Virus record (IMG/VR): IMGVR_UViG_2675903330_000003
Source: a virus
Taxonomy: Duplodnaviria > Heunggongvirae > Uroviricota > Caudoviricetes
Strand: one strand, 5' to 3'
DNA: 12,610 nucleotides
Notes under the pieces: model-generated
Databases searched by the model: none
What the model saw: the letters and a program-made list of their open reading frames with translations, nothing else
What the model was told of the DNA's origin: nothing
Part shown: positions 1-12,610 of the stretch, in pieces
Position numbering within the stretch: the stretch's first letter is position 1
Layout of the letters: the number at the start of each line of letters is the position of its first letter
Made by a program: the position numbers and the translations under genes

Positions 1-405
1 ATGGATCAGGTCGTTGTTTTTCAAAAGATGTTTGAGCAAGTGAGAAAAGAGCAAAACTTCTCCTGGTTTTATTCAGAATTAAAACATCACCGTATTGCAC
101 ATTACATTTATTATCTGGCTACGGATAACATCAGAATTATTACTCACGATGATACGGTTTTGTTATTAAGAGGAACCAGGAACCTGTTAAAAGTTAGTAC
201 GACCAAGAACCCTGCTAAAATAAAAGAGGCCGCATTGCTTCATATTTGCGGAAAATCTACATTTCGGGAATACTGTTCAACACTGGCAGGTGCGGGCGTT
301 TTCCGGTGGGTTACTGATGTTAATCATAACAAACGCAGTTACTACGCCATTGATAATACGCTTTTATATATTGAAGATGTAGAAAATAATAAACCATTAA
401 TCTAG
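1..405 (+). CDS. ycgX: DUF1398-family protein (YcgX/YdfO/YbcV-like), 134 aa
   Basis: 134-aa ORF from the track. It aligns by eye along its length with the second DUF1398 copy at 8814..9224 ([29 protein letters not shown]). Size and position beside iraM and the icd 3' remnant match K-12 ycgX. The window starts at the ATG, so the upstream region is not visible. Confidence 0.8.
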   Translation: MDQVVVFQKMFEQVRKEQNFSWFYSELKHHRIAHYIYYLATDNIRIITHDDTVLLLRGTRNLLKVSTTKNPAKIKEAALLHICGKSTFREYCSTLAGAGVFRWVTDVNHNKRSYYAIDNTLLYIEDVENNKPLI

Positions 406-621
406 CTAAAGTTGGATACTTAAGAAATGCTTCATAATTCAGTAAGGCATTAGCATAATGGAAATAAAAGTGCAGAGACTATCTCTATGGATGATTAATA
501 CTGTCTTTTTATTGTCACCCATAAATAATCACCAGACTAATACTATCAACTTGATATTTGAAATGTGATCACTTGACTTTTGATACGTTATTTTATAACG
601 GTTAACATATTTATAAAAACA

Positions 622-642
622 ACGGCCGTGCCACACGTCCGT
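622..642 (-). terminator. Imperfect hairpin (9-bp stem with one mismatch) followed by a T-rich run on the minus strand; diverged copy of the icd terminator element at 1488..1508
   Basis: Seen in sequence: acggccgtg-cca-cacgtccgt, with T-rich sequence downstream on the minus strand. About 85% identical over ~46 bp to 1482..1527. Confidence 0.4.
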
Positions 643-1019
643 TTCAATACTTAACGCACATGTATTTTGGTTTAGTCATCATCCGGTTATATGTATTTTA
701 GCCAGGAACAGGTTAAATCATTCCTATATAACTCAAAAATTGAAACCTTATTCTCATGTCATGCTTATATTCATTATTATCGTTATATAAAAAGGCAACC
801 ATAATGTTTAGCAAATTGGCACAAAGTAGCATAAAGGCTATGTTTTAATTACAGGATGTTCAGTCATTTGAATGTATAACATTATAGCTAAACAAATCTA
901 AAACGAAGTCAATAATTTATTGCTTTCACAAAATCTCATTTTGTTTAACATCCATTGAGATTCCTTGCTTTAAATTTTATTTTATATAAGCCATCATTTT
1001 AATTAATTTATTTTTTTGA

Positions 1020-1029
1020 GGGGGGGGGG
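1020..1029. repeat. G10 homopolymer tract in the AT-rich region ~80 bp upstream of iraM
   Basis: Directly seen: gag followed by nine more G (1020..1029) inside otherwise very AT-rich DNA. Confidence 0.9.
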
Positions 1030-1046
1030 TAATATACTCATATGCA

Positions 1047-1063
1047 AAATCAAGAAATAAACA
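1047..1063 (-). promoter_or_regulatory. Candidate PhoP-box-like direct repeat (TGTTTA-N5-TGATTT on the minus strand) upstream of iraM
   Basis: Minus-strand reading gives TGTTTA tttct TGATTT: first half-site 6/6, second 4/6 to the (T/G)GTTTA consensus. iraM is known to be PhoP-regulated, but this site assignment is a weak pattern match only. Confidence 0.2.
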
Positions 1064-1106
1064 TCCTAATGAACCATATTAAATACCGTGGGATAAGACA
1101 TAACAA

Positions 1107-1430
1107 ATGAAGTGGATAGTAATTGACACGGTAATTCAACCTACATGTGGTATATCTTTTTCAGCCATATGGGGTAATATGAAAATGATCATCTGGTATC
1201 AATCTACTATATTTCTCCCTCCTGGCAGTATATTTACACCGGTTAAGTCTGGTATTATCCTTAAGGATAAAGAATATCCTATTACTATTTATCACATCGC
1301 ACCATTCAACAAGGATTTATGGAGTTTACTCAAAAGCAGTCAAGAGTGTCCTCCAGGAGAAAGCAAAATAACAAATAAATGTTTACATAATAGTTGCATT
1401 ATAAAAATATGCCCATATGGGCTCAAGTAA
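1107..1430 (+). CDS. iraM: Anti-adaptor protein IraM (RssB inhibitor stabilising RpoS), 107 aa
   Basis: 107-aa ORF in AT-rich DNA. Sequence ([15 protein letters not shown]...ICPYGLK) recognised from memory as IraM/YcgW; length and synteny (between the icd 3' remnant and ycgX) match E. coli K-12. Weak Shine-Dalgarno. Confidence 0.75.
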
Positions 1431-1487
1431 TGGGCTTCATATAAATATGCTCGATATGCTATTAATAATATCCACATAAATAAAACA

Positions 1488-1508
1488 ACGGGCGTGTTAT
1501 ACGCCCGT
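1488..1508 (-). terminator. Rho-independent terminator of icd (perfect 8-bp stem, 5-nt loop, T-rich tail on the minus strand)
   Basis: Seen in sequence: acgggcgt-gttat-acgcccgt, lying 26 bp downstream of the icd-fragment stop codon in the icd sense and followed on the minus strand by GTTGTTTTATTTAT. Confidence 0.6.
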
Positions 1509-1533
1509 TTCAATATTTAACACATGGAGAGAT

Positions 1534-1697
1534 TACATGTTTTCGATGATCGCTTCACCAAACTCTGAACATTTCAGCAGCTTAGCGCCTTCCATCAGAC
1601 GTTCGAAGTCATAAGTTACGGTCTTGGCATTGATTGCGCCTTCCATACCTTTAACAATCAGGTCAGCCGCTTCAGTCCAACCCATATGGCGCAGCAG
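1534..1697 (-). pseudogene. icdC: Displaced 3' end of isocitrate dehydrogenase gene (icdC-like remnant, last ~53 codons)
   Basis: Minus-strand translation ends [53 protein letters not shown], matching the Icd C-terminus as recalled. No start codon or upstream icd sequence; similarity stops near 1697. This is the expected footprint of phage integration into the icd 3' end. Confidence 0.85.
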
Positions 1698-2397
1698 TAT
1701 ATAAAAACCATGAATTCAAGTCATTGATATTTAACGATAAAAATTATTTTATTGTCTTTTTATTAGCCAAAATAAACTTTATTCAACCGTTTGATTTCAT
1801 TGACGTTCGTTTTTATTTTGGGGAAAGGTTTTCTCTACCATTTATATCCAAATTACAAGTCTACATTTTATTAACATCTCAATACATGTGAGGCCTTGCA
1901 GACCTTTGTGAGACCTTATGTGTCTCTGTTTTGTCCCAACTTATGTTAAGAGGCACATAATTAAAAATAAGATAACGATGCCGCCAAGCAGTGCAAAACC
2001 TTGTTTACTCCACGACTGTCTGCCCCATTATCTGCATACATAATTATCCTCCATAACTGAGATAAATGTCGGTTATGAGCGAACAACAGACGTTTAGTTT
2101 ATGATGGCTGTGTCTATACATTAAACATAACATCCATTACCGGCACCGCTTATTAATTGCTATCTGATATTGTCACTAAAAAAATAGGCATTCCCCGATA
2201 TAATAATCACAAAGAAGCTTTTGGTGCTGGCAATCGGTATACCTCATAGTGGACTGCGACTTTCCGGGCACGACAAGGATATATCAATGTATGAGCAGGA
2301 AAATTAGACCGTGGTGCGTCATATGATGACTAAGCACGGATAACAGCTACTTAATTGAAACTATTGATTATATTACAGCCAGTGCCTTATAGGATGG

Positions 2398-3519
2398 TTA
2401 GTCATCAACCGCGACTCCTGCACAATCATGGGCTATTGCCAGCAATTGTTTTTTAATTGCTTTAGCATCTACCGTCATATCTACTGTAGCAAAATGGATC
2501 TTATGTCCCTGAGTGACAACATACTCATTAAGCATATAGCCAACAGCTGGATGAAGTAGAAGACCAGCGGCATTGAGCGAAAGCGGATCCGTCTTGTTCT
2601 CCTGTGTTCTAAGGTAGGTATATAGCTGATAAATATAGCCATTACGTAGTGATTGCTCCCGATGCCAACCCTTTGTCAGAATCGAATTAAATTTGGTATC
2701 GATAATAATACGCCGCTGGGCAGTCTTGTGTTCCAGAATAATGTCTGACTTCATTGTCGGGAAAATCTCTGCACTACCTGCACTTTGATCGCTCAACGCC
2801 CATTTCAGCTCTTTCCCTGCAGAGACCTGCCAAGTTGTTTTGGCAAGGTGTACACGATATAAGCCAGCGATACCTTTTTCAAATAGTCTTCTCATCCAGT
2901 AAAGGTTATTTGAGGGCGCAGGTAAAAGATATTGGCCTTGATCTTCGGTCGGCATCAGCAGTTCAAAAGCTAATCGTGCGGCATCGACCATCGGTTTATC
3001 TGCGGCATCATGGCGTCCAAAACGCCACACTGAGGGTAATTCGCGGGGGGCAGGATATCCTCCATTTATCCCCTCACGGCGAAGTGATATTGCCATAAAA
3101 TGGCAATCTGCCGCCAAAGACGGTTTCACTATGATTGAGGCCAGACGTTCTAACGCACAGCGAACATAGCGATTTCGGGGGGTGTTGAGGGTTATGTCTT
3201 GAAAATGGCAGGCAACCTGTCCCCGTTCCAGCAGTTGATGACTGGCAGTATACAGTATGTCAATGCGCCCTCTCACCCGGTTCAGGGCCGCATGACAAGT
3301 TTGGTATCCCATATTTAAATTGCGACGTCGGCGCAGCGTAATCTCATGAAGGAGGATTGTCGCCACCAGGTCGGGGATTTCTGCTGGGTTATCTTCTACT
3401 GCGATCTGATTGCGCCCTAACTGGCGAAACAGATCTGAAGCGTACAGCATCAGCATCCAGATATTTCGCATGGGAATACGTGATGCTGTATGTTGCTCAC
3501 TCCCGGTTATTGTCGTCAT
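2398..3519 (-). CDS. McrC-family endonuclease subunit of a Type IV (modification-dependent) restriction system, 373 aa
   Basis: N-terminal RIPMRNIWMLMLYAS resembles E. coli McrC PVIPVRNIYYMLTYAW. C-terminal SDIILEHK...RRIIIDTKF...YIYQLYTYL...AGLLLHP parallels McrC TDITIRSSEKILIVDAKYY...NLYQLMNYL...GGLLIYP, including the PD-(D/E)xK-type D...DxK motif. ATGA start/stop overlap with the upstream McrB-like gene. Confidence 0.85.
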   Translation of the reverse strand: MTTITGSEQHTASRIPMRNIWMLMLYASDLFRQLGRNQIAVEDNPAEIPDLVATILLHEITLRRRRNLNMGYQTCHAALNRVRGRIDILYTASHQLLERGQVACHFQDITLNTPRNRYVRCALERLASIIVKPSLAADCHFMAISLRREGINGGYPAPRELPSVWRFGRHDAADKPMVDAARLAFELLMPTEDQGQYLLPAPSNNLYWMRRLFEKGIAGLYRVHLAKTTWQVSAGKELKWALSDQSAGSAEIFPTMKSDIILEHKTAQRRIIIDTKFNSILTKGWHREQSLRNGYIYQLYTYLRTQENKTDPLSLNAAGLLLHPAVGYMLNEYVVTQGHKIHFATVDMTVDAKAIKKQLLAIAHDCAGVAVDD

Positions 3520-5498
3520 TTTGCTAATAACACTTTTCTGGCTTCATCGACTTTATTTGGAGCATCGAACCAATATTCGGCGAGCAAAGGGCAGATCTCT
3601 GTATCAACGACTTGTTCATACCAAGCCTGGGCATCGTTGATTTTTTGGCCGATAGCTGGGGTGACATAGCTGTGACCGATACAAAACTGTGGTCCTAAGG
3701 TAACATCTTTTGCCAGCATATCGTTTAATACCGTCAGTCGAGATTTGATGAATGCTAACATGTCAAAATCAATTGCGTAATTATAATTTACCCAGTTTCT
3801 CCACGCGTCATTAAAAGCTGGCTTTAGATCGATAAACGCGAAACGACGGCGCAGCGCTAGGTCAAGTAGTGCGAGTGAGCGGTCTGCAATATTCATCGTA
3901 CCGATGATATATAGATTCTCAGGAATGTATATTTTTTCATCAGCATTTTTAGGATAGGAAAGAGATAATGCCTCAGTCGGCGTGCGTTTATCTGCTTCCA
4001 TCAACGTGAGTGTTTCACCGAAGATTTGCGCCGGATTGCCACGATTAATCTCTTCAATTATCACCACATATTTCGAGGTAGGATTATTGACTGCAGTTTT
4101 GATTGCATTTACAAAAGGTCCATCAATTAGCGTCAATTGCCCTTCTTTACCTGGACGCCAGCCTCGAATAAAGTCTTCGTAAGAGAGGTTCGGGTGAAAT
4201 TGCACCGCGCTAATACGCTCAGGTGCTTTTTCTCCCATCAAGCAGTACGCCAGACGTCGCGCTAACCAAGTTTTTCCAGTTCCGGGTGGTCCTTGTAATA
4301 TCAGGTTTTTCTTGTCGATCAGGCGCTGAAGTGTGAGTTGGATCTTAGCCTCTTCCAAGAAACAGCCATCCTGCACCAGATGACTGATGTCATAAGGAAC
4401 GTGGGTGAGTTTTGGCAACAGCGCACTCTCTTCGACAGTTTCCTCAGTTATCGTCTGGGATTCGTTTTTCTCAAAATTCAGGTATTCATAATTTCCGGAC
4501 TCGAGGGACTTTAACTCATCATCATTGCATAGTTTCTGTAGATAAAAGTAGATTGAGCTTGTAACAGTTTTGCTCTCAGGATGCTCTACCTTGAATACGT
4601 CCAAGTAGTTTTCTTCCAACTCCGAAGCAGTGAAATAAGGGCCATTTTTTTTCAGGCATAACGCCTTAATTTTATTCAGTAAAGAGGCTTTCCACGTTCT
4701 ATTTGCCACCTCATCTTTAGACTGGCTAAGATCTGTATTCCACGCTGATAAGGAAAGTTCTGGGAAAGAATGAACCGGATAGTTTGGTTGGGTAAAGACC
4801 TCGTTCAGCGCCCGCATAAGACTCAGGTAACTTTGTCCACTACAGCGACCTTTTGCCCCGTTTTTAATGATCTTAATGTTTAACACTGTCTGAATGTAAT
4901 ACTGCGACTGGCTATCTAAAGTGGGGTAGAACCAAGGACGGGTCCAGTACAACCCCATGGTGAGATTCCAACCGACATTCATTACTGTAGAAGCGATGTC
5001 ATATGCGGCAGTGAAGTCTGCAGAGTTAGTATTCTGGTTATCCGCAAAGATCATTGCCTGTGAGAACATTTCCCACAAGCATTCAATGTCATTAGGGTCG
5101 CGTGACTTTTCATAACCAAAGAACCAAGATTTTTGGTTATTCAACAGAGGGATTCCGGCAAAGGAGTCAGGAATCGGTTCGTTCACGCCCAACAAATTCG
5201 CTAGCTTGGCAGCAATAATTTTGCGATTGCTGTCGGTCAAGTTACGATTGAACAAGCCCATAGTAGTAAACGGACAAATGTCTTTTAAGGGAAAGATCTC
5301 TCCCATAATAGATTTGTCCTGCAGATGGGACATTCCTTCCACACCCGAGGCAATTAGATGAATACCTTTGACTAATTCATCTCTACGATTTCGCCAAGTC
5401 AGTAACGCGTTGGCAAAAGCCTCATAAAAACTAGCCCAAGCAAACTTGCCATCATGTTCTGCTGTATCCACGGGAACTCCATTATACTTGTTGAGCAA
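3516..5498 (-). CDS. McrB-family GTPase (AAA+) subunit with an extended ~380-aa N-terminal region, 660 aa as called
   Basis: C-terminal half contains LILQGPPGTGKTWLARRLAY...VQFHPNLSYEDFIRGWRP...LYIIGTMNIADRSLALLDLALRRRFAF...CIGHSYV...PLLAEYWFD, closely paralleling the E. coli McrB GTPase domain. The start is uncertain: the track start is TTG at 5498 with no SD, while an in-frame GTG at 5471 is preceded by GGAG at 5-nt spacing. Confidence 0.85.
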   Translation of the reverse strand: MLNKYNGVPVDTAEHDGKFAWASFYEAFANALLTWRNRRDELVKGIHLIASGVEGMSHLQDKSIMGEIFPLKDICPFTTMGLFNRNLTDSNRKIIAAKLANLLGVNEPIPDSFAGIPLLNNQKSWFFGYEKSRDPNDIECLWEMFSQAMIFADNQNTNSADFTAAYDIASTVMNVGWNLTMGLYWTRPWFYPTLDSQSQYYIQTVLNIKIIKNGAKGRCSGQSYLSLMRALNEVFTQPNYPVHSFPELSLSAWNTDLSQSKDEVANRTWKASLLNKIKALCLKKNGPYFTASELEENYLDVFKVEHPESKTVTSSIYFYLQKLCNDDELKSLESGNYEYLNFEKNESQTITEETVEESALLPKLTHVPYDISHLVQDGCFLEEAKIQLTLQRLIDKKNLILQGPPGTGKTWLARRLAYCLMGEKAPERISAVQFHPNLSYEDFIRGWRPGKEGQLTLIDGPFVNAIKTAVNNPTSKYVVIIEEINRGNPAQIFGETLTLMEADKRTPTEALSLSYPKNADEKIYIPENLYIIGTMNIADRSLALLDLALRRRFAFIDLKPAFNDAWRNWVNYNYAIDFDMLAFIKSRLTVLNDMLAKDVTLGPQFCIGHSYVTPAIGQKINDAQAWYEQVVDTEICPLLAEYWFDAPNKVDEARKVLLAK

Positions 5499-5831
5499 TG
5501 ATAATTTATCTGTGTGAGTTTTAACATATTACTATCAGTTATAGAAAAATTTAACTATCCGATACAGAGAGCGGAATGCTGAATTTGACCTGACTTGCTT
5601 CCAACCAATTAAAATCAACTTATTTATCAATTGGTTATTTTGGCACATGGCGGTCATCAAGGCAATATCGCGTTGTCATAAGGTGTCGAGGCTCGGAGGT
5701 TCAAATCCTCTCATACAAAAAATAAATAAAATTAATGACGGTTGGAAATTATTCAATACACTCTCGAAAGTACATCAGCCAACCGCAGCACGTTATTGCA
5801 TATAACGTTTCTGCGGCATATCACAAAACTA

Positions 5832-6416
5832 TTATTCCATAACAGGGATTGCAGGCCACTCAATATCAGGTGCAGTTGATGTATCAACACGATTCAGCAA
5901 CACCCGATACTTCTTCCAGGCTTCAAGCAACGAGGTTTCTTCCTCCGTTGCGATTTCCAGATCTGCAGCATCCTGAAGCGGGGCAATATGCTCACTGGCT
6001 ACCTGCATCAGGCTGTTTTTTGTTTCTTCCGCCTCCCGGATCCGGAACAGTTTTTCTGCTTCCGTATCCTTCACCCAGGCTGTGCCGTTCCACTTCTGAA
6101 ACTCCCCTTCCGGGGATAACCAGGTGATATTTTCCGGTAGAGGTCCGAGTTCAGAAATAAATAACGAGTCGCCGGAAGCCACGTCATAGACGGTTTTTCC
6201 CCGATGATCTTCAACGAGATGCCACGATGCCTCATCACTGTTGAAAACAGCCACGAAGCCTACCGGAATATCTGGCGGTGCAATATAGGTACTGTTTGCT
6301 GGCAGACCTGTATGAGGCGGAATATATGCGTCACCTTCACCAATAAATTCATTAGTTCCGGCCAGCAGATTATAAATTTTTATGGTCCGTGGTTGTTCAC
6401 TCATTCTGAATGCCAT
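5832..6416 (-). CDS. tfa: Tail fibre assembly protein (Tfa), 194 aa
   Basis: Sequence [24 protein letters not shown]...EWPAIPVME recognised as the lambdoid TfaQ/TfaR family. Its ATG shares one base with the stop of the upstream stf fragment (TAATG), the typical stf-tfa arrangement. Confidence 0.85.
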
Positions 6417-7368
6417 TATGCAAGCCTCACAATGTAGTTAAATGCGATGTTTTTGACGGTGTTTTCCGCGTTACCAGCAGCGTTAACGGTGATGGTGTGT
6501 CCATGTGAGCCAATCGCAACGGAGTGCGTATGAGCACCAATACCGACAGTATGTGCATGTGCGCCTGCGCTTGCAGCAGTGCCGGACAGCGAGTGGGTAT
6601 GAGCACCATCTGATGATGTCTTCCCTGCATTACGAGTCTGGCCACTACCGCTTGTTGTGCTCATAATCCCCGCGCTTGGATTTGAAATCGCGGTATAACC
6701 ATTAGGGAAAATGCTCGTGTTCGTGCCACCAAATGCACCGGAACTCTTGTGTTGGTGCGCGCCGGCACTATTTGCGGTCCCGCTAATACTATGGGTATGC
6801 GCCCCGGTGTTATTCGTGGATTTGGTTCCGTAATCAAACGACGATGTGGTTTTCGTCCCCAAATCCGTACTGGATGCGCTGGCGCTGTGGGTGTGCGATT
6901 TAATGCCGTCCTGTTCCTGAGATAATACGGCCCGACCACTGGCGGGCTTGCCCTTAATCGTCCAGCCACGCATATCAGGGATCACGCCTGACGGATAAGC
7001 AACTGCAAGTTTCGGGTATGCAGATTTGTCAAAAGTCTGCCCCTGCATCAGGGCATAACCAGACGGAACGGTATCTGATGGCCACGGGATTGGTGCACCG
7101 ACTGGATAAAACTCTGCAGGAGGATGAGCCGAGGTGTAAAGCTGCGCCCACGGCGACCAGTTTGCGTCGGTCGTATCCCGTCGTGAACGAATAAATGCCG
7201 GAGCATGAGCACCGCTTGTACCACTCCAGCCGATGAGTAACTCACCTTCGCCAACGGCTGTCATCCCTTTCAGGTGAATGATATTTCCATACGCTGTTGG
7301 ATATCCGTTGTTATACACCTCGTATAACTCAAGACCTGCTGCCCCCTGCGTATTGTCTGTCAGCGCGG
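6416..7368 (-). pseudogene. stf: 3' fragment of a side tail fibre gene (stf), C-terminal ~300+ aa with His-rich GAHTHS repeats
   Basis: Repeats ([44 protein letters not shown]) are typical of lambdoid Stf C-terminal domains. The frame is open upstream to ~7387 with no ATG; the track start at 7318 is a GTG. Directly abutted by the truncated terminase gene, so the N-terminal part is missing. Confidence 0.7.
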
Positions 7369-7614
7369 TTAACCGACACGGGCAGACTTCACCACATTCA
7401 CCTCACGGATGTAGTCGCTGCCCATCGCATTCATGATGGCCCGCTGAAAGGGCAGTGTTTCCCAGCGCCCTTCCTGGTATGCGGATTCTTTCGGGAGATA
7501 GTAATTAGCATCCGCCCATTCAACGGCGGTCTGTGGCTCCGGCCTGAACAGTGAGCGAAGCCCGGCGCGGACAAAATGCCGCAGCCTGTTAACCTGACTG
7601 TTCGATATATTCAC
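7369..7614 (-). pseudogene. Truncated terminase large subunit (lambda gpA N-terminal 81 codons only)
   Basis: [81 protein letters not shown] matches the lambda gpA N-terminus as recalled (full length ~641 aa). The frame ends at TAA 7369..7371, after which the sequence switches to stf. Start overlaps the 3' end of the Nu1 gene as in lambda. Confidence 0.85.
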
Positions 7615-8134
7615 TCAGCAACCCCGGTATCAGTTCATCCAGCGCGGCTGCTTTGTTCATGGCTTTGATGATATCCCGTTTCAGGAAATCAACATGTCGG
7701 TTTTCCAGTTCCGGAAAACGCCGCTGCACCGACAGGGGGATCCCGTCGAGAATACTGGCAATTTCACCTGCGATCCGCGACAGCACGAAAGTACAGAATG
7801 CGGTTTCCACCACTTCAGCGGAGTCTCTGGCATTTTTCAGCTCCTGTGCGTCGGCCTGCGCACGCGTAAGTCGATGGCGTTCGTACTCAATAGTCCCTGG
7901 CTGGAGATCTGTCTCGCTGGCCTGCCGCAGTTCTTCAACTTCCCGGCGCAGCTTTTCGTTCTCAATTTCAGCATCCCTTTCGGCATACCATTTTATGACG
8001 GCGGCAGAATCATAAAGCACCTCATTACCCTTGCCACCGCCTCGCAGAACGGGCATTCCCTGTTCCTGCCAGTTCTGAATGGTACGGATACTCGCACCGA
8101 AAATGTCAGCCAGCTGCTTTTTGTTGACTTCCAT
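7589..8134 (-). CDS. nohA: Terminase small subunit (lambda Nu1 homolog), 181 aa, apparently intact
   Basis: Full-length match to lambda Nu1 as recalled (MEVNKKQLADIFGASIRTIQNWQEQGMPVLRGGGKGNEVLYDSAAVIKWYAERD...SEYIEQSG), located immediately downstream of the cos site. Confidence 0.9.
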   Translation of the reverse strand: MEVNKKQLADIFGASIRTIQNWQEQGMPVLRGGGKGNEVLYDSAAVIKWYAERDAEIENEKLRREVEELRQASETDLQPGTIEYERHRLTRAQADAQELKNARDSAEVVETAFCTFVLSRIAGEIASILDGIPLSVQRRFPELENRHVDFLKRDIIKAMNKAAALDELIPGLLSEYIEQSG

Positions 8135-8522
8135 TGTTCATTCCACGGACAAAAACAGAGAAAGGAAACGACAAAGGCCAAAAAGCCCGCTTTCAGCACC
8201 TGTCGTTTCCTTTCTTTTCAGGGGGTATTTTAAATAAAAACATTAAGTTACGACGAAGAAGAACGGAAACACCTTAAACCGGAAAATTTTCATAAATAGC
8301 GAAAACCCGCGAGGTCGCCGCCCCGTAACCTGTCGGATCACCGGAAAGGACCCGTAAAGTGATAATGATTATCATCTACATATCACAACGTGCGTGGAGG
8401 CCATCAAACCACGTCAAATAATCAATTATGACGCAGGTATCGTATTAATTGATCTGCATCAACTTAACGTAAAAACAACTTCAGACAATACAAATCAGCG
8501 ACACTGAATACGGGGCAACCTC
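8135..8522 (-). other. Lambda-type cos region: cosB side 8135..8311, cosN 12-nt cohesive end 8312..8323 (minus-strand GGGCGGCGACCT), phage right-end/cosQ side 8324..8522
   Basis: Plus strand 8312..8323 is aggtcgccgccc, the reverse complement of the lambda cohesive end GGGCGGCGACCT. Flanking sequence on both sides matches the lambda left-end and right-end sequences as recalled. Confidence 0.8.
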
Positions 8523-8756
8523 ATGTCAACGAAGAACAAAACCCGCAGAACAACAACCCGCAACATCCGCTTTCCTAACCAAATGATTGAACAAATTAAC
8601 ATCGCTCTTGAGCAAAAAGGGTCCGGGAATTTCTCAGCCTGGGTCATTGAAGCCTGCCGCCGGAGACTGTGCTCAGAAAAAAGAGTTTCTTCTGAAGCAA
8701 ACAAAGAAAAGAGTGACATTACTGAATTGCTCAGAAAACAGGTCAGACCAGATTGA
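8523..8756 (+). CDS. Small prophage protein, 77 aa (YnfO-like by position and size), function unknown
   Basis: 77-aa ORF between cos and the DUF1398 gene, as ynfO in the K-12 Qin prophage; preferred over the antisense 88-aa ORF 8495..8761 on context. Weak SD; no experimental evidence here. Confidence 0.55.
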   Translation: MSTKNKTRRTTTRNIRFPNQMIEQINIALEQKGSGNFSAWVIEACRRRLCSEKRVSSEANKEKSDITELLRKQVRPD

Positions 8757-8813
8757 AGCAATTTAGATAATCGTGCAGACTACGCCCCCTCATATCACAT
8801 GGAAGGTTTATCT

Positions 8814-9224
8814 ATGGATCAGGTAGTCATTTTTAAACAAATATTTGATAAAGTTCGAAACGATTTAAACTATCAATGGTTTTATTCTGAGCTAAAACGT
8901 CACAATGTCTCACATTACATTTACTATTTAGCCACAGAGAATGTTCATATTGTATTAAAAAATGATAATACAGTGTTATTAAAGGGCCTAAAAAACATTG
9001 TGTCTGTCAAATTTTCAAAGGATAGGCATCTTATAGAAACGACCTCTAATAAGCTGAAATCCAGAGAGATCACATTTCAGGAATACAGAAGAAACCTTGC
9101 TAAAGCAGGAGTTTTTCGGTGGGTTACAAATATCCACGAACAAAAAAGATATTACTATACCTTTGATAATTCATTACTATTTACTGAAAGCATCCAGAAA
9201 ACTACACAGATCTTACCACGCTAA
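8814..9224 (+). CDS. ydfO: DUF1398-family protein (YdfO-like), 136 aa from the second ATG
   Basis: GGAAGG Shine-Dalgarno 7 nt upstream of the ATG at 8814; the track start at 8799 adds 5 residues. Paralog of the ORF at 1..405. Confidence 0.8.
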
Positions 9225-9375
9225 ACCATAACGTCCGGCTTCTCTCACTCCTGAGCCGGACTGCATTGGTTTAATAAAAACCATCAACAATTGTGATTTA
9301 GATATTCGGAACCATTCAAATATAACAAAACCCCGTAAAAACGAGGTTTATGGATAAATTTTATTATTGAATACA

Positions 9376-9552
9376 TCAGATTAAATTAATCTTGACATCA
9401 TAGCTTTCAAGACCCGTCATTTTTTCCCGTGCGGTAAACTGAATGCTGGTAACTTCTTTCCCGGTCTTTTTCTTAAGTTCAATAATTTTTTTTGTTATAT
9501 ATTCAGAAATATCTGCTTCTGCTTTTGTTTTTAAGTTTTCAATATTCATCAT
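9376..9552 (-). CDS. gnsB: GnsA/GnsB-family small protein, 58 aa (below the ORF-track size cutoff)
   Basis: Manual minus-strand translation gives MMNIENLKTKAEADISEYITKKIIELKKKTGKEVTSIQFTAREKMTGLESYDVKINLI*, matching the GnsA/GnsB family (...KEVSEIRFTAREKMTGLESYDVKIKIM as recalled). GAGGAA Shine-Dalgarno upstream; true start may be the second ATG at 9549. Confidence 0.7.
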   Translation of the reverse strand: MMNIENLKTKAEADISEYITKKIIELKKKTGKEVTSIQFTAREKMTGLESYDVKINLI

Positions 9553-9720
9553 TTCCTCTTTTAGTCTGTTATGACTTTCCAGTTACACAGTAAGTCGATT
9601 ATATGGTGCAAACGTGTAAAAGATAAGATGAAACATCGCAATAATCAACATACGATAGTCTAAATTTTACACAAACAGACAAAGAGAATTTTCCTGAATT
9701 ATCAATGCAATAGCATCAAA

Positions 9721-9951
9721 TCAACTCAAGAGCCTTATTGCTGCTTCCAGAATTTCTTCTGAAGTAACATGTCGATCCGCGGCTACATAAATGACTTTAT
9801 GATCTCCGGTCAGAGATGGAAACCCTGCGGCCATTACAGTAAGGTGTGTTTTTTCGCCATTTGGATATTCACGCATGATGGTGTTAACTCCAGTCATCGC
9901 TGGCACTACCACTGCTGGTTCAGAGTTAAAAAAAACTATGATTTTTTTCAT
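9721..9951 (-). CDS. Hypothetical small prophage protein, 76 aa (MKKIIVFFNSEPAVVVPAMTG...)
   Basis: The 90-aa track ORF starts at a TTG at 9993; the in-frame ATG at 9951 gives a 76-aa product. Sits between gnsB and cspI, where K-12 Qin has ynfN, but no sequence recognition is claimed. Confidence 0.45.
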   Translation of the reverse strand: MKKIIVFFNSEPAVVVPAMTGVNTIMREYPNGEKTHLTVMAAGFPSLTGDHKVIYVAADRHVTSEEILEAAIRLLS

Positions 9952-9995
9952 GATGTTACCGTAGTATGTGAGTATCCATCGAATAGACACCAAGC

Positions 9996-10016
9996 AAAAA
10001 AGCTCCCGAAGGAGCC
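9996..10016 (-). terminator. Hairpin with T-run; candidate (possibly bidirectional) intrinsic terminator downstream of cspI
   Basis: Seen: gctcc-cgaa-ggagc stem-loop at 10002..10015, followed on the minus strand by TTTTTT and on the plus strand by ttcattttcactttttt. Confidence 0.45.
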
Positions 10017-10222
10017 TTCATTTTCACTTTTTTAAATCCAACGACAGACGGCTGGCATTTAAGTATTGTGAAATATTATCAAATGTAATCATCATTGATT
10101 TACAAAAGATACATTTTGCCCCGAAAGGATTCATGTCAGAAACATCAAAAGATGATGTTCTATACTGGGAACCATGACAACACGGGCATCTAAAGTGAAT
10201 ATGGTTTGTAATATTGTCTACC

Positions 10223-10435
10223 TCAAAGCGCCACTACATGAACAGCGGCAGGACCTTTAGGTCCGTTCTCAATACCAAATTCAACTTCCTGATTCTCAGT
10301 TAATGTTTTGAAATCGTTGCTCTGAATTGCTGAGAAATGGACAAACACATCTTTGCTGCCATCTTTCGGCGTGATGAAACCAAAACCTTTTTCAGGGTTA
10401 AACCATTGCACTAAACCAGTCATTTTGTTAGACAT
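10223..10435 (-). CDS. cspI: Cold-shock protein, CspA family (CspI-like), 70 aa
   Basis: [70 protein letters not shown] carries the cold-shock domain RNP motifs (KGFGFI, VFVHF) and matches Qin-prophage CspI as recalled. Followed upstream by a long untranslated leader, typical of csp genes. Confidence 0.9.
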
Positions 10436-10797
10436 AATTATTACCTTTTGAAGAAATTAGCCCTTGGGCAGAATGGTCCGAAAAAAAATATCAGAGAGAA
10501 AAACCAACAAGGAAATCTCAAGAGGTACAAATAATAAAATTATAACAATGACTGCTTCAGATAAATTTGTAACAAACCAGAACACCATTAACGCATGATT
10601 AACCACCCATAGCAAGGATTACTTTTGTAAAGAAAAACACAGCAATGAAAGAATAGCTTTATTTATTAATAAAACGTGTCATTCTGATTAAGACCTTTTA
10701 TCTTACCCTTAAGATTTCAGGAATTTTGGCTCATGGAAGAGTCCTTTTTATTTAAATTTTACATTCCGCGATGTAAATGTTCCGATTTAATATTACC

Positions 10798-11825
<1,028 letters not shown>

Positions 11826-11888
11826 AGATATTTATGAACCGCCCCGGGAATCCTGGAGACTAAACTTCCTGAGAAAGAGGTAAACAGG

Positions 11889-12215
11889 ATGACTAAAAAT
11901 ACTCGTTTTTCCCCCGAAGTCCGTCAACGGGCAGTCCGTATGGTTCTGGAAAGTCAGGATGAATATGACTCACAGTGGGCGGCAATTTGTTCCATTGCCC
12001 CAAAGATTGGCTGTACGCCGGAGACTCTGCGTGTCTGGGTTCGCCAGCATGAGCGGGATACCGGGGGCGGTGATGGTGGGCTCACCAGCGCTGAACGTCA
12101 GCGTCTGAAAGAGCTGGAACGTGAAAATCGTGAACTGCGCCGCAGTAACGATATCCTTCGCCAGGCTTCCGCTTATTTTGCGAAGGCGGAGTTCGACCGC
12201 CTCTGGAAAAAATGA
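11889..12215 (+). CDS. IS3-family transposase OrfA (helix-turn-helix / leucine-zipper part), 108 aa
   Basis: [23 protein letters not shown]...[36 protein letters not shown]; ends in an A6 run (12207..12212) where the -1 frame orfB opens. Confidence 0.9.
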
Positions 12216-12610
12216 TGCCACTGCTGGATAAGCTGCGTGAGCAGTACGGGGTCGGACCGGTATGCAGCGAACTGCATATTGCCCCGTCAACGTATTACCA
12301 TTGTCAGCAACAGCGACATCATCCGGATAAACGCAGTGCCCGTGCGCAGCACGATGACTGGCTGAAGAGAGAGATACAGCGCGTATACGATGAAAATCAT
12401 CAGGTGTACGGTGTGCGTAAAGTCTGGCGTCAGTTGTTACGGGAAGGAATCAGGGTGGCCAGATGTACAGTGGCGCGCCTCATGGCGGTTATGGGACTTG
12501 CCGGTGTTCTCCGGGGTAAAAAGGTCCGTACGACCATCAGCCGGAAAGCCGTTGCCGCAGGCGACCGCGTAAACCGTCAGTTCGTGGCAGAACGACCTGA
12601 CCAGCTGTGG
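12212..12610 (+). CDS. IS3-family transposase OrfB (DDE catalytic part), N-terminal 133 codons, truncated by the window end
   Basis: The -1 frame relative to orfA is open from 12212 to the window end ([34 protein letters not shown]...VAERPDQLW), the typical IS3 OrfAB frameshift arrangement. Not in the ORF track because it has no stop in the window. Confidence 0.8.

Follow-up and report, generated by a model that had tools for sequence, protein, structure and literature searches.

The direct repeat around iraM at the icd locus of Escherichia coli is probably the scar of an eroded prophage

In most E. coli genomes iraM lies between two diverged copies of the icd terminator, here called A and B, and these copies probably mark both ends of a prophage, now eroded, that was once integrated in the 3′ end of icd, the site of e14 and phage 21. 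The window, i.e. the whole stretch of 12,610 nucleotides that was analyzed, carries at least two and possibly three stacked integration layers at icd. A preliminary description had proposed that iraM sits in the scar of an earlier integration at this site, and this interpretation is supported by single-copy empty sites in genomes without iraM and by the anatomy of haplotype D, a rare and deeply diverged E. coli type (19 genomes). The features of the window are as follows.

1..405, plus strand: ycgX (DUF1398), annotated; Pfam DUF1398 E = 1e-47
458..568, plus strand: ymgL, small ORF between ycgX and A, RefSeq annotation; Pfam YmgL E = 3e-29
565..607, plus strand: flank directly left of A, resembling e14-type attP integrase arm repeats (TTTTGATAA)
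616..662, plus strand: copy A, decayed icd terminator copy and putative outer scar, with a C.T stem mismatch (repeat search, alignment, fold)
663..1106, plus strand: annotated AT-rich region upstream of iraM, 26-33% G+C
804-848, plus strand: ymgK, annotated, within the region upstream of iraM
1020-1029, plus strand: G10 tract, within the same region
1042-1110, plus strand: upstream ORF of 22 codons, matching the N-terminus of the haplotype D ymgB-like gene
1107..1430, plus strand: iraM (anti-adaptor of RssB), annotated; the sole gene remaining between A and B
1482..1527, no strand assigned: copy B, hairpin at 1487-1509 with T-runs on both sides (terminator scan and folds)
1533..1696, minus strand: icdC-type pseudogene, the icd 3′ remnant that the current prophage displaced; annotation: partial dehydrogenase
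1697..12610, no strand assigned: outer part of the current prophage, with McrBC-like genes, a tail fibre and others (source genome map)

The repeat search identified a single direct-repeat family in the window, 616-658 versus 1482-1524, in which 36 of 43 nt are identical without gaps (84%) and the two copies start 866 nt apart. Gapped local alignment extended the pair to 616-662 and 1482-1527, with 39 identities over 45 aligned positions and one 2-nt gap, so that the previously reported direct repeat of about 46 bp and about 85% identity bracketing iraM was placed correctly. This alignment scored 53; in 200 dinucleotide shuffles the best match on the same strand reached 25.7 ± 2.6 (maximum 38). 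Exactly two places in the 12.6-kb window fit the hairpin pattern AACGG-N13-CCGTT, against 0.01 expected. Across 185,579 species genomes, scanned at one genome per species with a pattern too strict for the diverged terminators of other Escherichia, ACAACGG-N13-CCGTTTCAATA was found in E. coli (both A and B), in Shigella flexneri and in one Escherichia sp., with some 20 unrelated single matches elsewhere, which is about chance level for 18 specified bases. Those chance-level matches aside, the pattern is specific to the icd locus of Escherichia. Both copies are a G+C-rich inverted repeat followed by T-runs, and one explanation could be chance or convergence of two unrelated Rho-independent terminators. 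The probability of this is negligible, given an alignment score about 10 standard deviations over shuffles, similarity that extends through the non-hairpin tail, and a pattern confined to one locus; moreover the single copy at empty sites, described below, links the flank of A to the flank of B, which already refutes it. Pairwise alignment and comparison with the icd downstream region, both suggested in the preliminary description, showed A and B to share a common origin in the icd 3′ end and its terminator, as haplotype D shows (below). There was no transposase ORF and there were no terminal inverted repeats within 663-1481, and a 46-bp repeat is unlike the target-site duplication of a transposon or IS; integron-cassette, transposon and generic-terminator readings of the pair were considered and rejected. 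An Rfam search of positions 1-2400 at E ≤ 1 returned sub-threshold noise only.

Copy B is, as had been described, the terminator straight after the icd 3′ remnant, whose stop codon is 5 nt away. Its hairpin has a perfect G+C-rich stem of 9-10 bp with a T-run behind it on the icd strand, where the tail reads UUGUUUUAUUU, and it folds at -16.5 kcal/mol on the icd strand and -15.9 kcal/mol on the iraM strand (z about -3.5). With a stable G+C-rich hairpin directly before a U-run, B has the features of an intrinsic (Rho-independent) terminator and is predicted to act bidirectionally, as the common terminator of the convergent icd and iraM. Its hairpin sequence was invariant in 24 of 24 copies read, phage-borne copies included; B may have been retained intact because it still terminates icd plus the convergent iraM. 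Copy A as found in the window does not have the hairpin plus U-run of an intrinsic terminator: on the icd-sense strand the fold of lowest energy is not this hairpin, and shuffles do as well (z = -0.8), and on the plus strand the hairpin is broken by the mismatch (-10.5 kcal/mol, z = -1.7). There are four variants of A in E. coli (A1-A4), whose stem-disrupting changes differ and arose independently, and the reconstructed ancestor of A has a perfect stem (-16.8 kcal/mol). Copy A is thus decaying while copy B remains constant, and most of the 15% divergence between them is later decay of A rather than divergence at the time of insertion. No A-type terminators were found in phages, the phage collection containing B-type copies only, within phage-21-like attP; A-type copies among the IMG/VR matches were E. 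coli chromosomal flanks of predicted prophages.

Genomes without iraM provide a view of the locus with a single terminator. Among 5426 complete E. coli genomes the A-iraM-B arrangement is intact in 3863, and iraM is absent from 1037 (19%, about a fifth), CFT073 and ST131-type B2 strains among them. Each of these 1037 has exactly one terminator copy, B-like throughout, whose left neighbor is the ymgL flank, as for A, and whose right neighbor is icd, as for B; this junction was confirmed by direct reading of the sequence. A Citrobacter genome has the same empty arrangement of ycgX, one terminator and icd. The survey of iraM-less genomes that the preliminary description had called for therefore gave a single copy at the empty site in E. 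coli and Citrobacter, and no iraM-less genome with both copies was seen. Those iraM-less E. coli that could be identified to phylogroup were B2. The flanks of the empty sites differ by about 3% from those of iraM-positive genomes, and haplotype D differs by 19-21% from all of them, so the island is older than the split between D and the common type. IAI39, which we take to belong to phylogroup F, sister to B2, has iraM, and this favors loss in B2. The empty B2 site is probably a secondary deletion by recombination of A with B, and not an ancestral site that was never occupied. Comparison of the icd-rluE segment with the E. coli collection yielded no cryptic-clade outgroups, every match being at least 97.8% identical.

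An alternative explanation is that a small element carrying iraM inserted into the single native icd terminator rather than into icd, recombining with a terminator-like sequence of its own, in which case the empty sites would be ancestral. This would account for a repeat confined to the terminator, with no icd coding sequence beside A in the window or in any of the common haplotypes, and it is consistent with single-copy empty sites in both E. coli and Citrobacter and with the B-like identity of the single copy. It would not account for the A-position copy of haplotype D, which reaches the icd stop codon and last codons, as expected only if the duplicated unit had included icd. Known icd-site phages, moreover, cross over within icd (at window position 1696/1697) and not in the terminator, the empty-site flanks are nested among iraM-positive flanks relative to D, and IAI39 points to loss. 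Insertion into the terminator is therefore unlikely, and an eroded prophage in icd remains the preferred reading.

The absence of icd from A in the window was noted in the preliminary description, and it held: alignment of 663-1481 with full icd scored 20 versus a shuffle mean of 21.4, and no icd remnant was found on the icd strand right of A when both strands were searched under two scoring schemes. One stretch of 28 nt in iraM does match the icd sense strand (score 31 versus a shuffle maximum of 27) and was taken as chance. Left of B, no similarity to arm-type repeats was detected in the window. Since the window A has no icd remnant and there are no arms left of B, the case for integration into icd rests on haplotype D. 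Compared with the window, haplotype D is 98% identical in bluR, 89% in ycgX and 81% in iraM, and its interval between the copies is 6.3 kb. Its A-position copy is continued collinearly by icd sequence, namely the stop codon and the four codons before it, the icd tail comprising 13 exact bases, ACATATTCTTGAT, with 20/27 identity beyond TTAA. Of a full displaced icd remnant (about 165 bp, to the crossover) on the outer repeat, no trace was detected beside A in the window, and only haplotype D keeps the stop and four codons. From left to right, haplotype D has the A-position terminator with its icd stop codon and four codons, a ymgB/ariR-family gene, iraM, trkG with an Rz fragment (89.5% identity to Rac-like phages), part of an IS, an orphan ORF, e14-type integrase arm repeats adjoining the B-position terminator on its left with no int, that terminator, and icd. 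The window version is haplotype D minus three deletions. Positions 663..1106 have 70% homology to the DNA upstream of the D ymgB-like gene, and the start codon and N-terminal codons of that gene persist in the window as the upstream ORF at 1042-1110. The D gene order, with iraM left of the trkG-Rz fragment, was collinear with no single lambdoid phage examined, and two or more elements may have contributed to the D interval.

There was no int between A and B in the window, and no integrase or other core phage gene between them in any haplotype seen. This, together with the direct repeat as such, could suggest that the terminator was duplicated on the spot through slippage or unequal crossing-over, without a mobile element, followed by the arrival of an unrelated iraM between the copies. 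Such a history would require two independent events at one spot and would leave unexplained the icd stop on the outer copy, the phage trkG-Rz block and e14-type arms in D, and the phage-borne location of the IraM relatives examined; we regard it as very unlikely compared with descent from an integrated prophage.

Those relatives bear on the origin of the DNA between the repeats, which is AT-rich (26-34% G+C). In all, 34 IraM homologues were found. Genomic context was read for three of the more divergent ones (57-70% identity), and each of these belongs to a lambdoid prophage, with Q or stx2 on one side and nanS-p on the other. The homologue of an Stx2 phage, 65% identical, is likewise in a lambdoid prophage. 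Together with the trkG-Rz fragment of haplotype D, the location of the homologues examined points to a phage origin of the inter-repeat DNA. At the DNA level, homology of the window iraM to the phage copies is confined to about 1078-1442 and ends at the CDS, and no phage carrying the upstream DNA of 663-1077 was found in the phage collection or IMG/VR. A protein-based scan of IMG/VR with haplotype D IraM returned one locus, already known. A 105-aa ORF in an iraM-like position of a Rac-like phage was found not to be an IraM homologue.

The youngest integration layer at icd is the current prophage, a defective phage-21-type element of 17.5 kb whose attR junction is at 1696/1697; in genomes whose icd is intact, the match to the window stops at 1691-1696. 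The source genome has the order icd, a third terminator copy adjoining intact icd, int, xis, more prophage genes, mcrC, icd remnant and iraM. In phage 21 and relatives, an O157 prophage and the e14 type, too, a terminator copy separates int from the icd 3′ end, as it does in about 50 IMG/VR prophage ends that were read. The K-12 iraM has been located on the e14 prophage (Hryckowian et al. 2014, PMC4045071), and iraM abuts the prophage end in the window, as would be expected if it were part of the present e14-like prophage with A as its outer boundary. This is scarcely credible, because iraM lies outside the attR junction, past the displaced icd remnant, and because prophage-free strains with intact icd, e.g. 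4/2-1, have ycgX-A-iraM-B unchanged, which already refutes it. The published placement is thus corrected: iraM is outside e14-type elements and would lie instead in the older integration scar, and for that reason prophage-free strains retain it.

There may also be an older layer to the left. A ycgX homologue of 70% identity lies in an E. albertii lambdoid prophage, between Nu1 and lysis genes, and a Citrobacter homologue adjoins icd; ycgX, belonging to a family with phage-borne members, may be part of a still older integration. Two YcgX homologues, from Escherichia sp. E10V10 (77%, near fli genes) and from the E. albertii prophage (70%), were considered as outgroups for the junction and set aside as located elsewhere. 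The flank at 565..607 aligned to e14-type arms with local scores of 33-35 (shuffle mean 17-18, maximum 30-33), a score reached in 0-1 of 500 shuffles, and blastn joined this flank plus terminator to the e14-type arm plus terminator of strain WL297. This is suggestive, and the flank is possibly a relic of an older attL. A bolder extension, which we consider doubtful, is that most E. coli carry a three-layer accretion stack (ycgX-ymgL, arm relic and A; iraM and B; the current prophage) in which the stem changes of A were selected. The iraM gene, a core node of the K-12 RpoS network, would then be a domesticated phage moron predating E. coli diversification, and the four stem breaks in A would reflect not neutral decay but selection, acting repeatedly, against a terminator that separates ymgL from the iraM promoter region, retuning iraM expression lineage by lineage, along with the variable G8-G11 tract upstream of iraM.

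As we infer the order of events, a donor phage would have brought its own last 165 bp of icd plus terminator, as e14 and phage 21 do, and integration would have joined this phage-borne copy to icd, so that the resident copy and its icd remnant ended up on the opposite side of the prophage. Geometry is what suggests which of the two copies was phage-borne: B would derive from the phage-borne, icd-proximal unit, and A from the displaced unit, which would have lost its icd coding part and continues to decay. Deletions would then have stripped nearly the whole prophage, leaving 0.87 kb with iraM, a putative phage accessory (moron) gene taken into host RpoS control. A later phage-21-type prophage would have entered the same site, giving the stacked layers of the window, and recombination between the A and B repeats would permit deletion of iraM, most likely producing the single-copy empty site of phylogroup B2.

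This is a relic of an expected kind and no new mechanism is needed; what it offers is a piece of genome history and help in interpreting how strains differ in RpoS control. The direct-repeat pair, able to delete the gene, gives a simple structural reason for the known presence/absence polymorphism of iraM, and the locus suggests that the terminator of a housekeeping gene can come from a phage and then serve a captured phage gene as well. At this one attachment site the layered integrations can be followed through a graded series of intervals, from 6.3 kb through 0.87 kb to 0 kb.

Compared with known systems, the A/B pair resembles attL/attR of e14 and phage 21 (with the icdC pseudogene in K-12) in its target gene and in the duplication, on integration, of a phage-carried icd 3′ end plus terminator; B with the 164-nt remnant at 1533-1696 is exactly the icdC-type attR of the current prophage. 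Unlike those elements, the pair encloses only 0.87 kb without an integrase, A has neither the icd coding part nor the crossover region, and most E. coli genomes have the pair, with or without a prophage now at icd. The CIME-type remnants of the ICESt1/CIME literature are integrase-less elements flanked by att-derived repeats at the 3′ ends of tRNA or other genes. The icd locus is like CIME accretion in that successive integrations at one site are stacked with att-derived direct repeats between them, and the inner elements, their integrase lost, are reduced to cargo. It differs in that the icd crossover core (near window position 1696) is missing from A; the iraM interval is therefore not a cis-mobilizable element, would not be excisable through A and B by the integrase of an icd-site phage, and could be lost only via homologous or short-homology recombination. 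Lastly, IraM belongs to the same protein family as the IraM/IraL phage morons (iraL in the potB island of CFT073, the iraM-like gene beside stx2B in Stx2 phages), which, as here, are AT-rich single-gene modules in lambdoid prophage DNA. Unlike these morons, the iraM of the window would have outlived its prophage and come to have a terminator in common with a housekeeping gene, and its DNA homology to them ends at the CDS.

The window is the reverse strand of sequence from E. coli strain Z1323CEC0018 (NZ_CP148405.1), with the following features.

1-405, plus strand: ycgX
458-568, plus strand: ymgL
616-662, plus strand: copy A of the repeat
804-848, plus strand: ymgK
1107-1430, plus strand: iraM
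1482-1527: copy B of the repeat
1533-1696, minus strand: icd 3′ remnant
1697 onward, to 12610: outer part of a defective phage-21-type prophage of 17.5 kb (whole element, locus L094, 10549-28000)

In the source genome, intact icd adjoins the opposite prophage end (int, xis), with a third terminator copy beside it. The current prophage also carries an McrBC-like pair (mcrC, 2398-3471; AAA ATPase, 3516-5471), a gene for a DGQHR-domain protein, emrE, a serine recombinase gene and tail-fibre genes.

Copies A and B, put forward in the preliminary description as direct repeats of the icd terminator bracketing iraM, are related as proposed, with 36/43 positions identical without gaps, 39 of 45 aligned positions identical when one 2-nt gap is allowed, and an alignment score of 53 compared with 25.7 +/- 2.6 (maximum 38) for shuffles. 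The hairpin pattern AACGG-N13-CCGTT occurs at two places in the window, A and B, against an expectation of 0.01. The remainder of that description of the region was also borne out: copy B adjoins the icd remnant, with 5 nt between it and the stop codon, no icd coding similarity was found to the right of A in the window, and the interval between the copies is AT-rich, at 26-34% G+C. No integrase survives between the copies. Copy B has a perfect hairpin of 9-10 bp with T-runs on either side and predicted folding energies of -16.5 kcal/mol (icd strand) and -15.9 kcal/mol (iraM strand), z being about -3.5. The stop codon of iraM is 51 nt away from copy B, so that by sequence it is a predicted bidirectional terminator common to both genes. 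Copy A has a C.T mismatch in its stem and, by fold prediction, does not form the terminator hairpin on the icd-sense strand. A generic terminator motif was ruled out as the source of the similarity by a scan of one genome per species (185,579 species) with a relaxed pattern fitting both copies: matches were to E. coli (two copies 864 nt apart), Shigella flexneri and one Escherichia sp., and otherwise to about 20 unrelated single sites, about chance level for 18 specified bases.

Phage 21 and its relatives carry, in order, int, about 60 bp with TTTTGGGGA arm repeats (integrase arm-type repeats of attP), a B-type terminator and the last 165 bp of icd; an O157 prophage has the same arrangement, and the e14 type carries a terminator variant of its own, with TTTTGATAA arm repeats. 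Since icd-site phages and prophages carry a copy of the terminator, the repeated unit is a known attP component for the icd site; the literature already describes how e14 duplicates the 3′ end of icd. About 50 prophage icd ends from IMG/VR (loci L098-L177) fall into these two arm families, TTTTGATAA and TTTTGGGGA, and within each the phage-borne terminator matches the type of the host genus, either the E. coli type or a ACGGGAACC...GGCTCCCGTT type whose hairpin is also present in a Citrobacter genome. This correspondence with host genus implies that the segment would often be exchanged between phage and host.

The origin of the outer copy is most informatively read from haplotype D, a deeply diverged allele of 19 genomes with 98% identity to the window in bluR, 89% in ycgX and 81% in iraM. 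Its copy A reads ACAACGGGCGTGTTATATGCCCGTTCAATACTTAA, then TAGGTATAGCGTTAACATATTCTTGAT, the latter being collinear first with the terminator-icd spacer and then with the stop codon and final four codons of icd (20/27 identity, the last 13 bases exact). The outer copy thus goes back to a unit made up of terminator and icd sequence, as expected of an att scar, and this supports the earlier suggestion that both copies come from one icd-derived sequence. The main rival explanation, that a small element inserted into the terminator itself and that the empty state is ancestral, fits the window alone but is at odds with this icd tail. In strain WL297 (NZ_CP128613.1; L093, 19602-26600) the copies are separated by 6.3 kb. 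A ymgB/ariR-family gene and iraM come first, then trkG together with the 3′ part of Rz (a block 89.5% identical to Rac-like phages), the remains of an IS, an orphan ORF of 455 aa that has no Pfam match, and arm repeats of the e14 type, before a B-type terminator and icd. This gene order is collinear with no single lambdoid phage among those examined. The window version corresponds to haplotype D after three deletions: one of about 230 nt that takes in the icd tail, one of about 430 nt that removes the body of the ymgB-like gene, and one of about 4.9 kb from trkG through the arm repeats. One D sub-variant (L090, with L091 and L092 as further D loci) has lost ymgL and the copy at the A position and kept iraM.

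Genomes without iraM had been expected to carry a single copy, and this is what was found. Among 5426 complete E. coli genomes, 1037 (19%) have a contiguous single-copy empty junction, 3863 (71%) the intact A-iraM-B arrangement and 19 haplotype D, the remainder mostly being without the entire ycgX-iraM flank, as in O157:H7. In strain N1420, which is without iraM, the ymgL flank matches the left of A base for base into a single terminator, which continues to icd as on the right side of B. In a Citrobacter genome with conserved synteny, ycgX (75% nucleotide identity) is followed by an IS200 remnant, a single terminator and icd, an arrangement that shows what the site would have looked like before the island. 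No genome without iraM that keeps both copies was seen among those examined. Empty-site flanks, from ycgX to the terminator edge, are about 3% from the flanks of the common variants A1, A2 and A3, whereas the haplotype D flank is 19-21% from all of these, empty sites included; between D and the common type the island has diverged along with its flank, which makes the island older than the separation of the two. The empty-site strains that could be placed (ATCC 11775, ATCC 25922 and ST131) belong to phylogroup B2, and iraM is present in IAI39, of phylogroup F, sister to B2. Given the age of the island and its presence in IAI39, the B2 empty site is probably a secondary A-B deletion rather than a site never occupied, and the crossover would lie within the first 15 shared bases because the surviving copy is B-like.

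In O157:H7 (L004, ATCC 43888 and others) a prophage integrase directly adjoins the terminator and icd, and the ycgX-ymgL-iraM flank has no match anywhere in these genomes, the entire flank being missing from the lineage. Separately, E. coli GPEC1354 (L006, 2100-2830) has an IS200C copy ending ...ttttctgtgcac immediately left of the icd terminator, and the IS200 remnant of Citrobacter sp. (L088, 5620-6155) ends at the same position, ...ttttctgtgcac (compare L155, an IMG/VR prophage end). IS200 seems to have targeted the position beside the terminator hairpin more than once.

Four variants of copy A were distinguished outside haplotype D, each with the stem broken at a different place.

A1, the window, a region matched at 99.8% by a K-12-like genome: hairpin GGCCGTGCCACACGTCC
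A2, S. flexneri and many others: hairpin GGGTGTGCCATACGCCC
A3, one IMG/VR contig: hairpin GGGCGTGCCATACGTCC
A4, IAI39: CAATGG in the outer stem

Their inferred ancestor, with an unbroken stem (-16.8 kcal/mol), matches B apart from the loop (CC versus TT), one tail base and a 2-nt indel; copy A of haplotype D retains the B-type loop. The B hairpin is the same in 24/24 copies read, varying only in bases just past it. On these comparisons, most of the 15% divergence between A and B arose after duplication, in the copy no longer terminating icd.

An older layer may be present left of A, where about 40 nt (565-607) align with e14-type TTTTGATAA arm repeats at a score of 33-35, compared with a shuffle mean of 17-18 and maximum of 30-33. 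This is suggestive that the "native" ymgL/ycgX flank is itself a relic of an older e14-type attL, left by an icd-integrated element, in which case the window would hold three stacked layers.

Homologues of iraM number only 34 among 5.8 billion proteins, all named ones being from E. coli or E. albertii. Three divergent homologues (57-70% identity) whose loci were read lie in lambdoid prophages between Q (or stx2AB) and nanS-p, and a Stx2-phage copy of IraM, 65% identical, has the same position. Judged by these relatives, iraM is a phage-type gene. A YcgX homologue lies in an E. albertii prophage between Nu1 and lysis genes. Upstream of iraM, an unannotated 22-codon ORF (1042-1110, ATGCAAAATCAAGAA...AAATGA) has a stop overlapping the iraM start as ATGA; the ORF is what remains of the ymgB/ariR-family gene preceding iraM in haplotype D, namely its start and N-terminal codons, and translational coupling to iraM is possible. 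A G10 homopolymer at 1020-1029, about 80 nt upstream of the iraM start codon, is the counterpart of the Shine-Dalgarno region of the D ymgB-like gene; near-identical genomes have G8 (n=3), G9 (n=2), G10 (n=7), G11 (n=1) and one interrupted tract, and other haplotypes read GAAGGGG. The tract could be hypermutable and affect iraM expression. A 22/28 match between the coding strands of iraM (1218-1246) and icd (about nt 188-216), scoring 31 against a shuffle maximum of 27, is probably chance.

The single-copy empty sites, the icd tail of haplotype D and the phage DNA in its interval together support the original proposal that iraM sits in the scar of an earlier icd integration. The explanation that fits best is repeated integrase-mediated insertion into icd, which would push each previous terminator unit outward, and the older prophage would have been worn down by deletion to one useful moron, iraM; B may be kept because it is the predicted terminator of icd and iraM, with A left as a relic and deletion substrate. 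The published placement of iraM on the e14 prophage in K-12 (PMC4045071) conflicts with the finding that prophage-free strains retain A-iraM-B beside intact icd, and by sequence iraM sits beyond the e14-type attR junction. The searchable literature yielded no account of the two repeats flanking iraM, of the graded series of haplotypes or of copy A's decay. Earlier work had established the icd attachment site, icdC and the variable presence of iraM among strains; a phage-related origin has been proposed for the ycgX neighbourhood (PMC3509220). The A/B pair is an att scar with a prophage remnant at this well-studied site, and involves no new mechanism.
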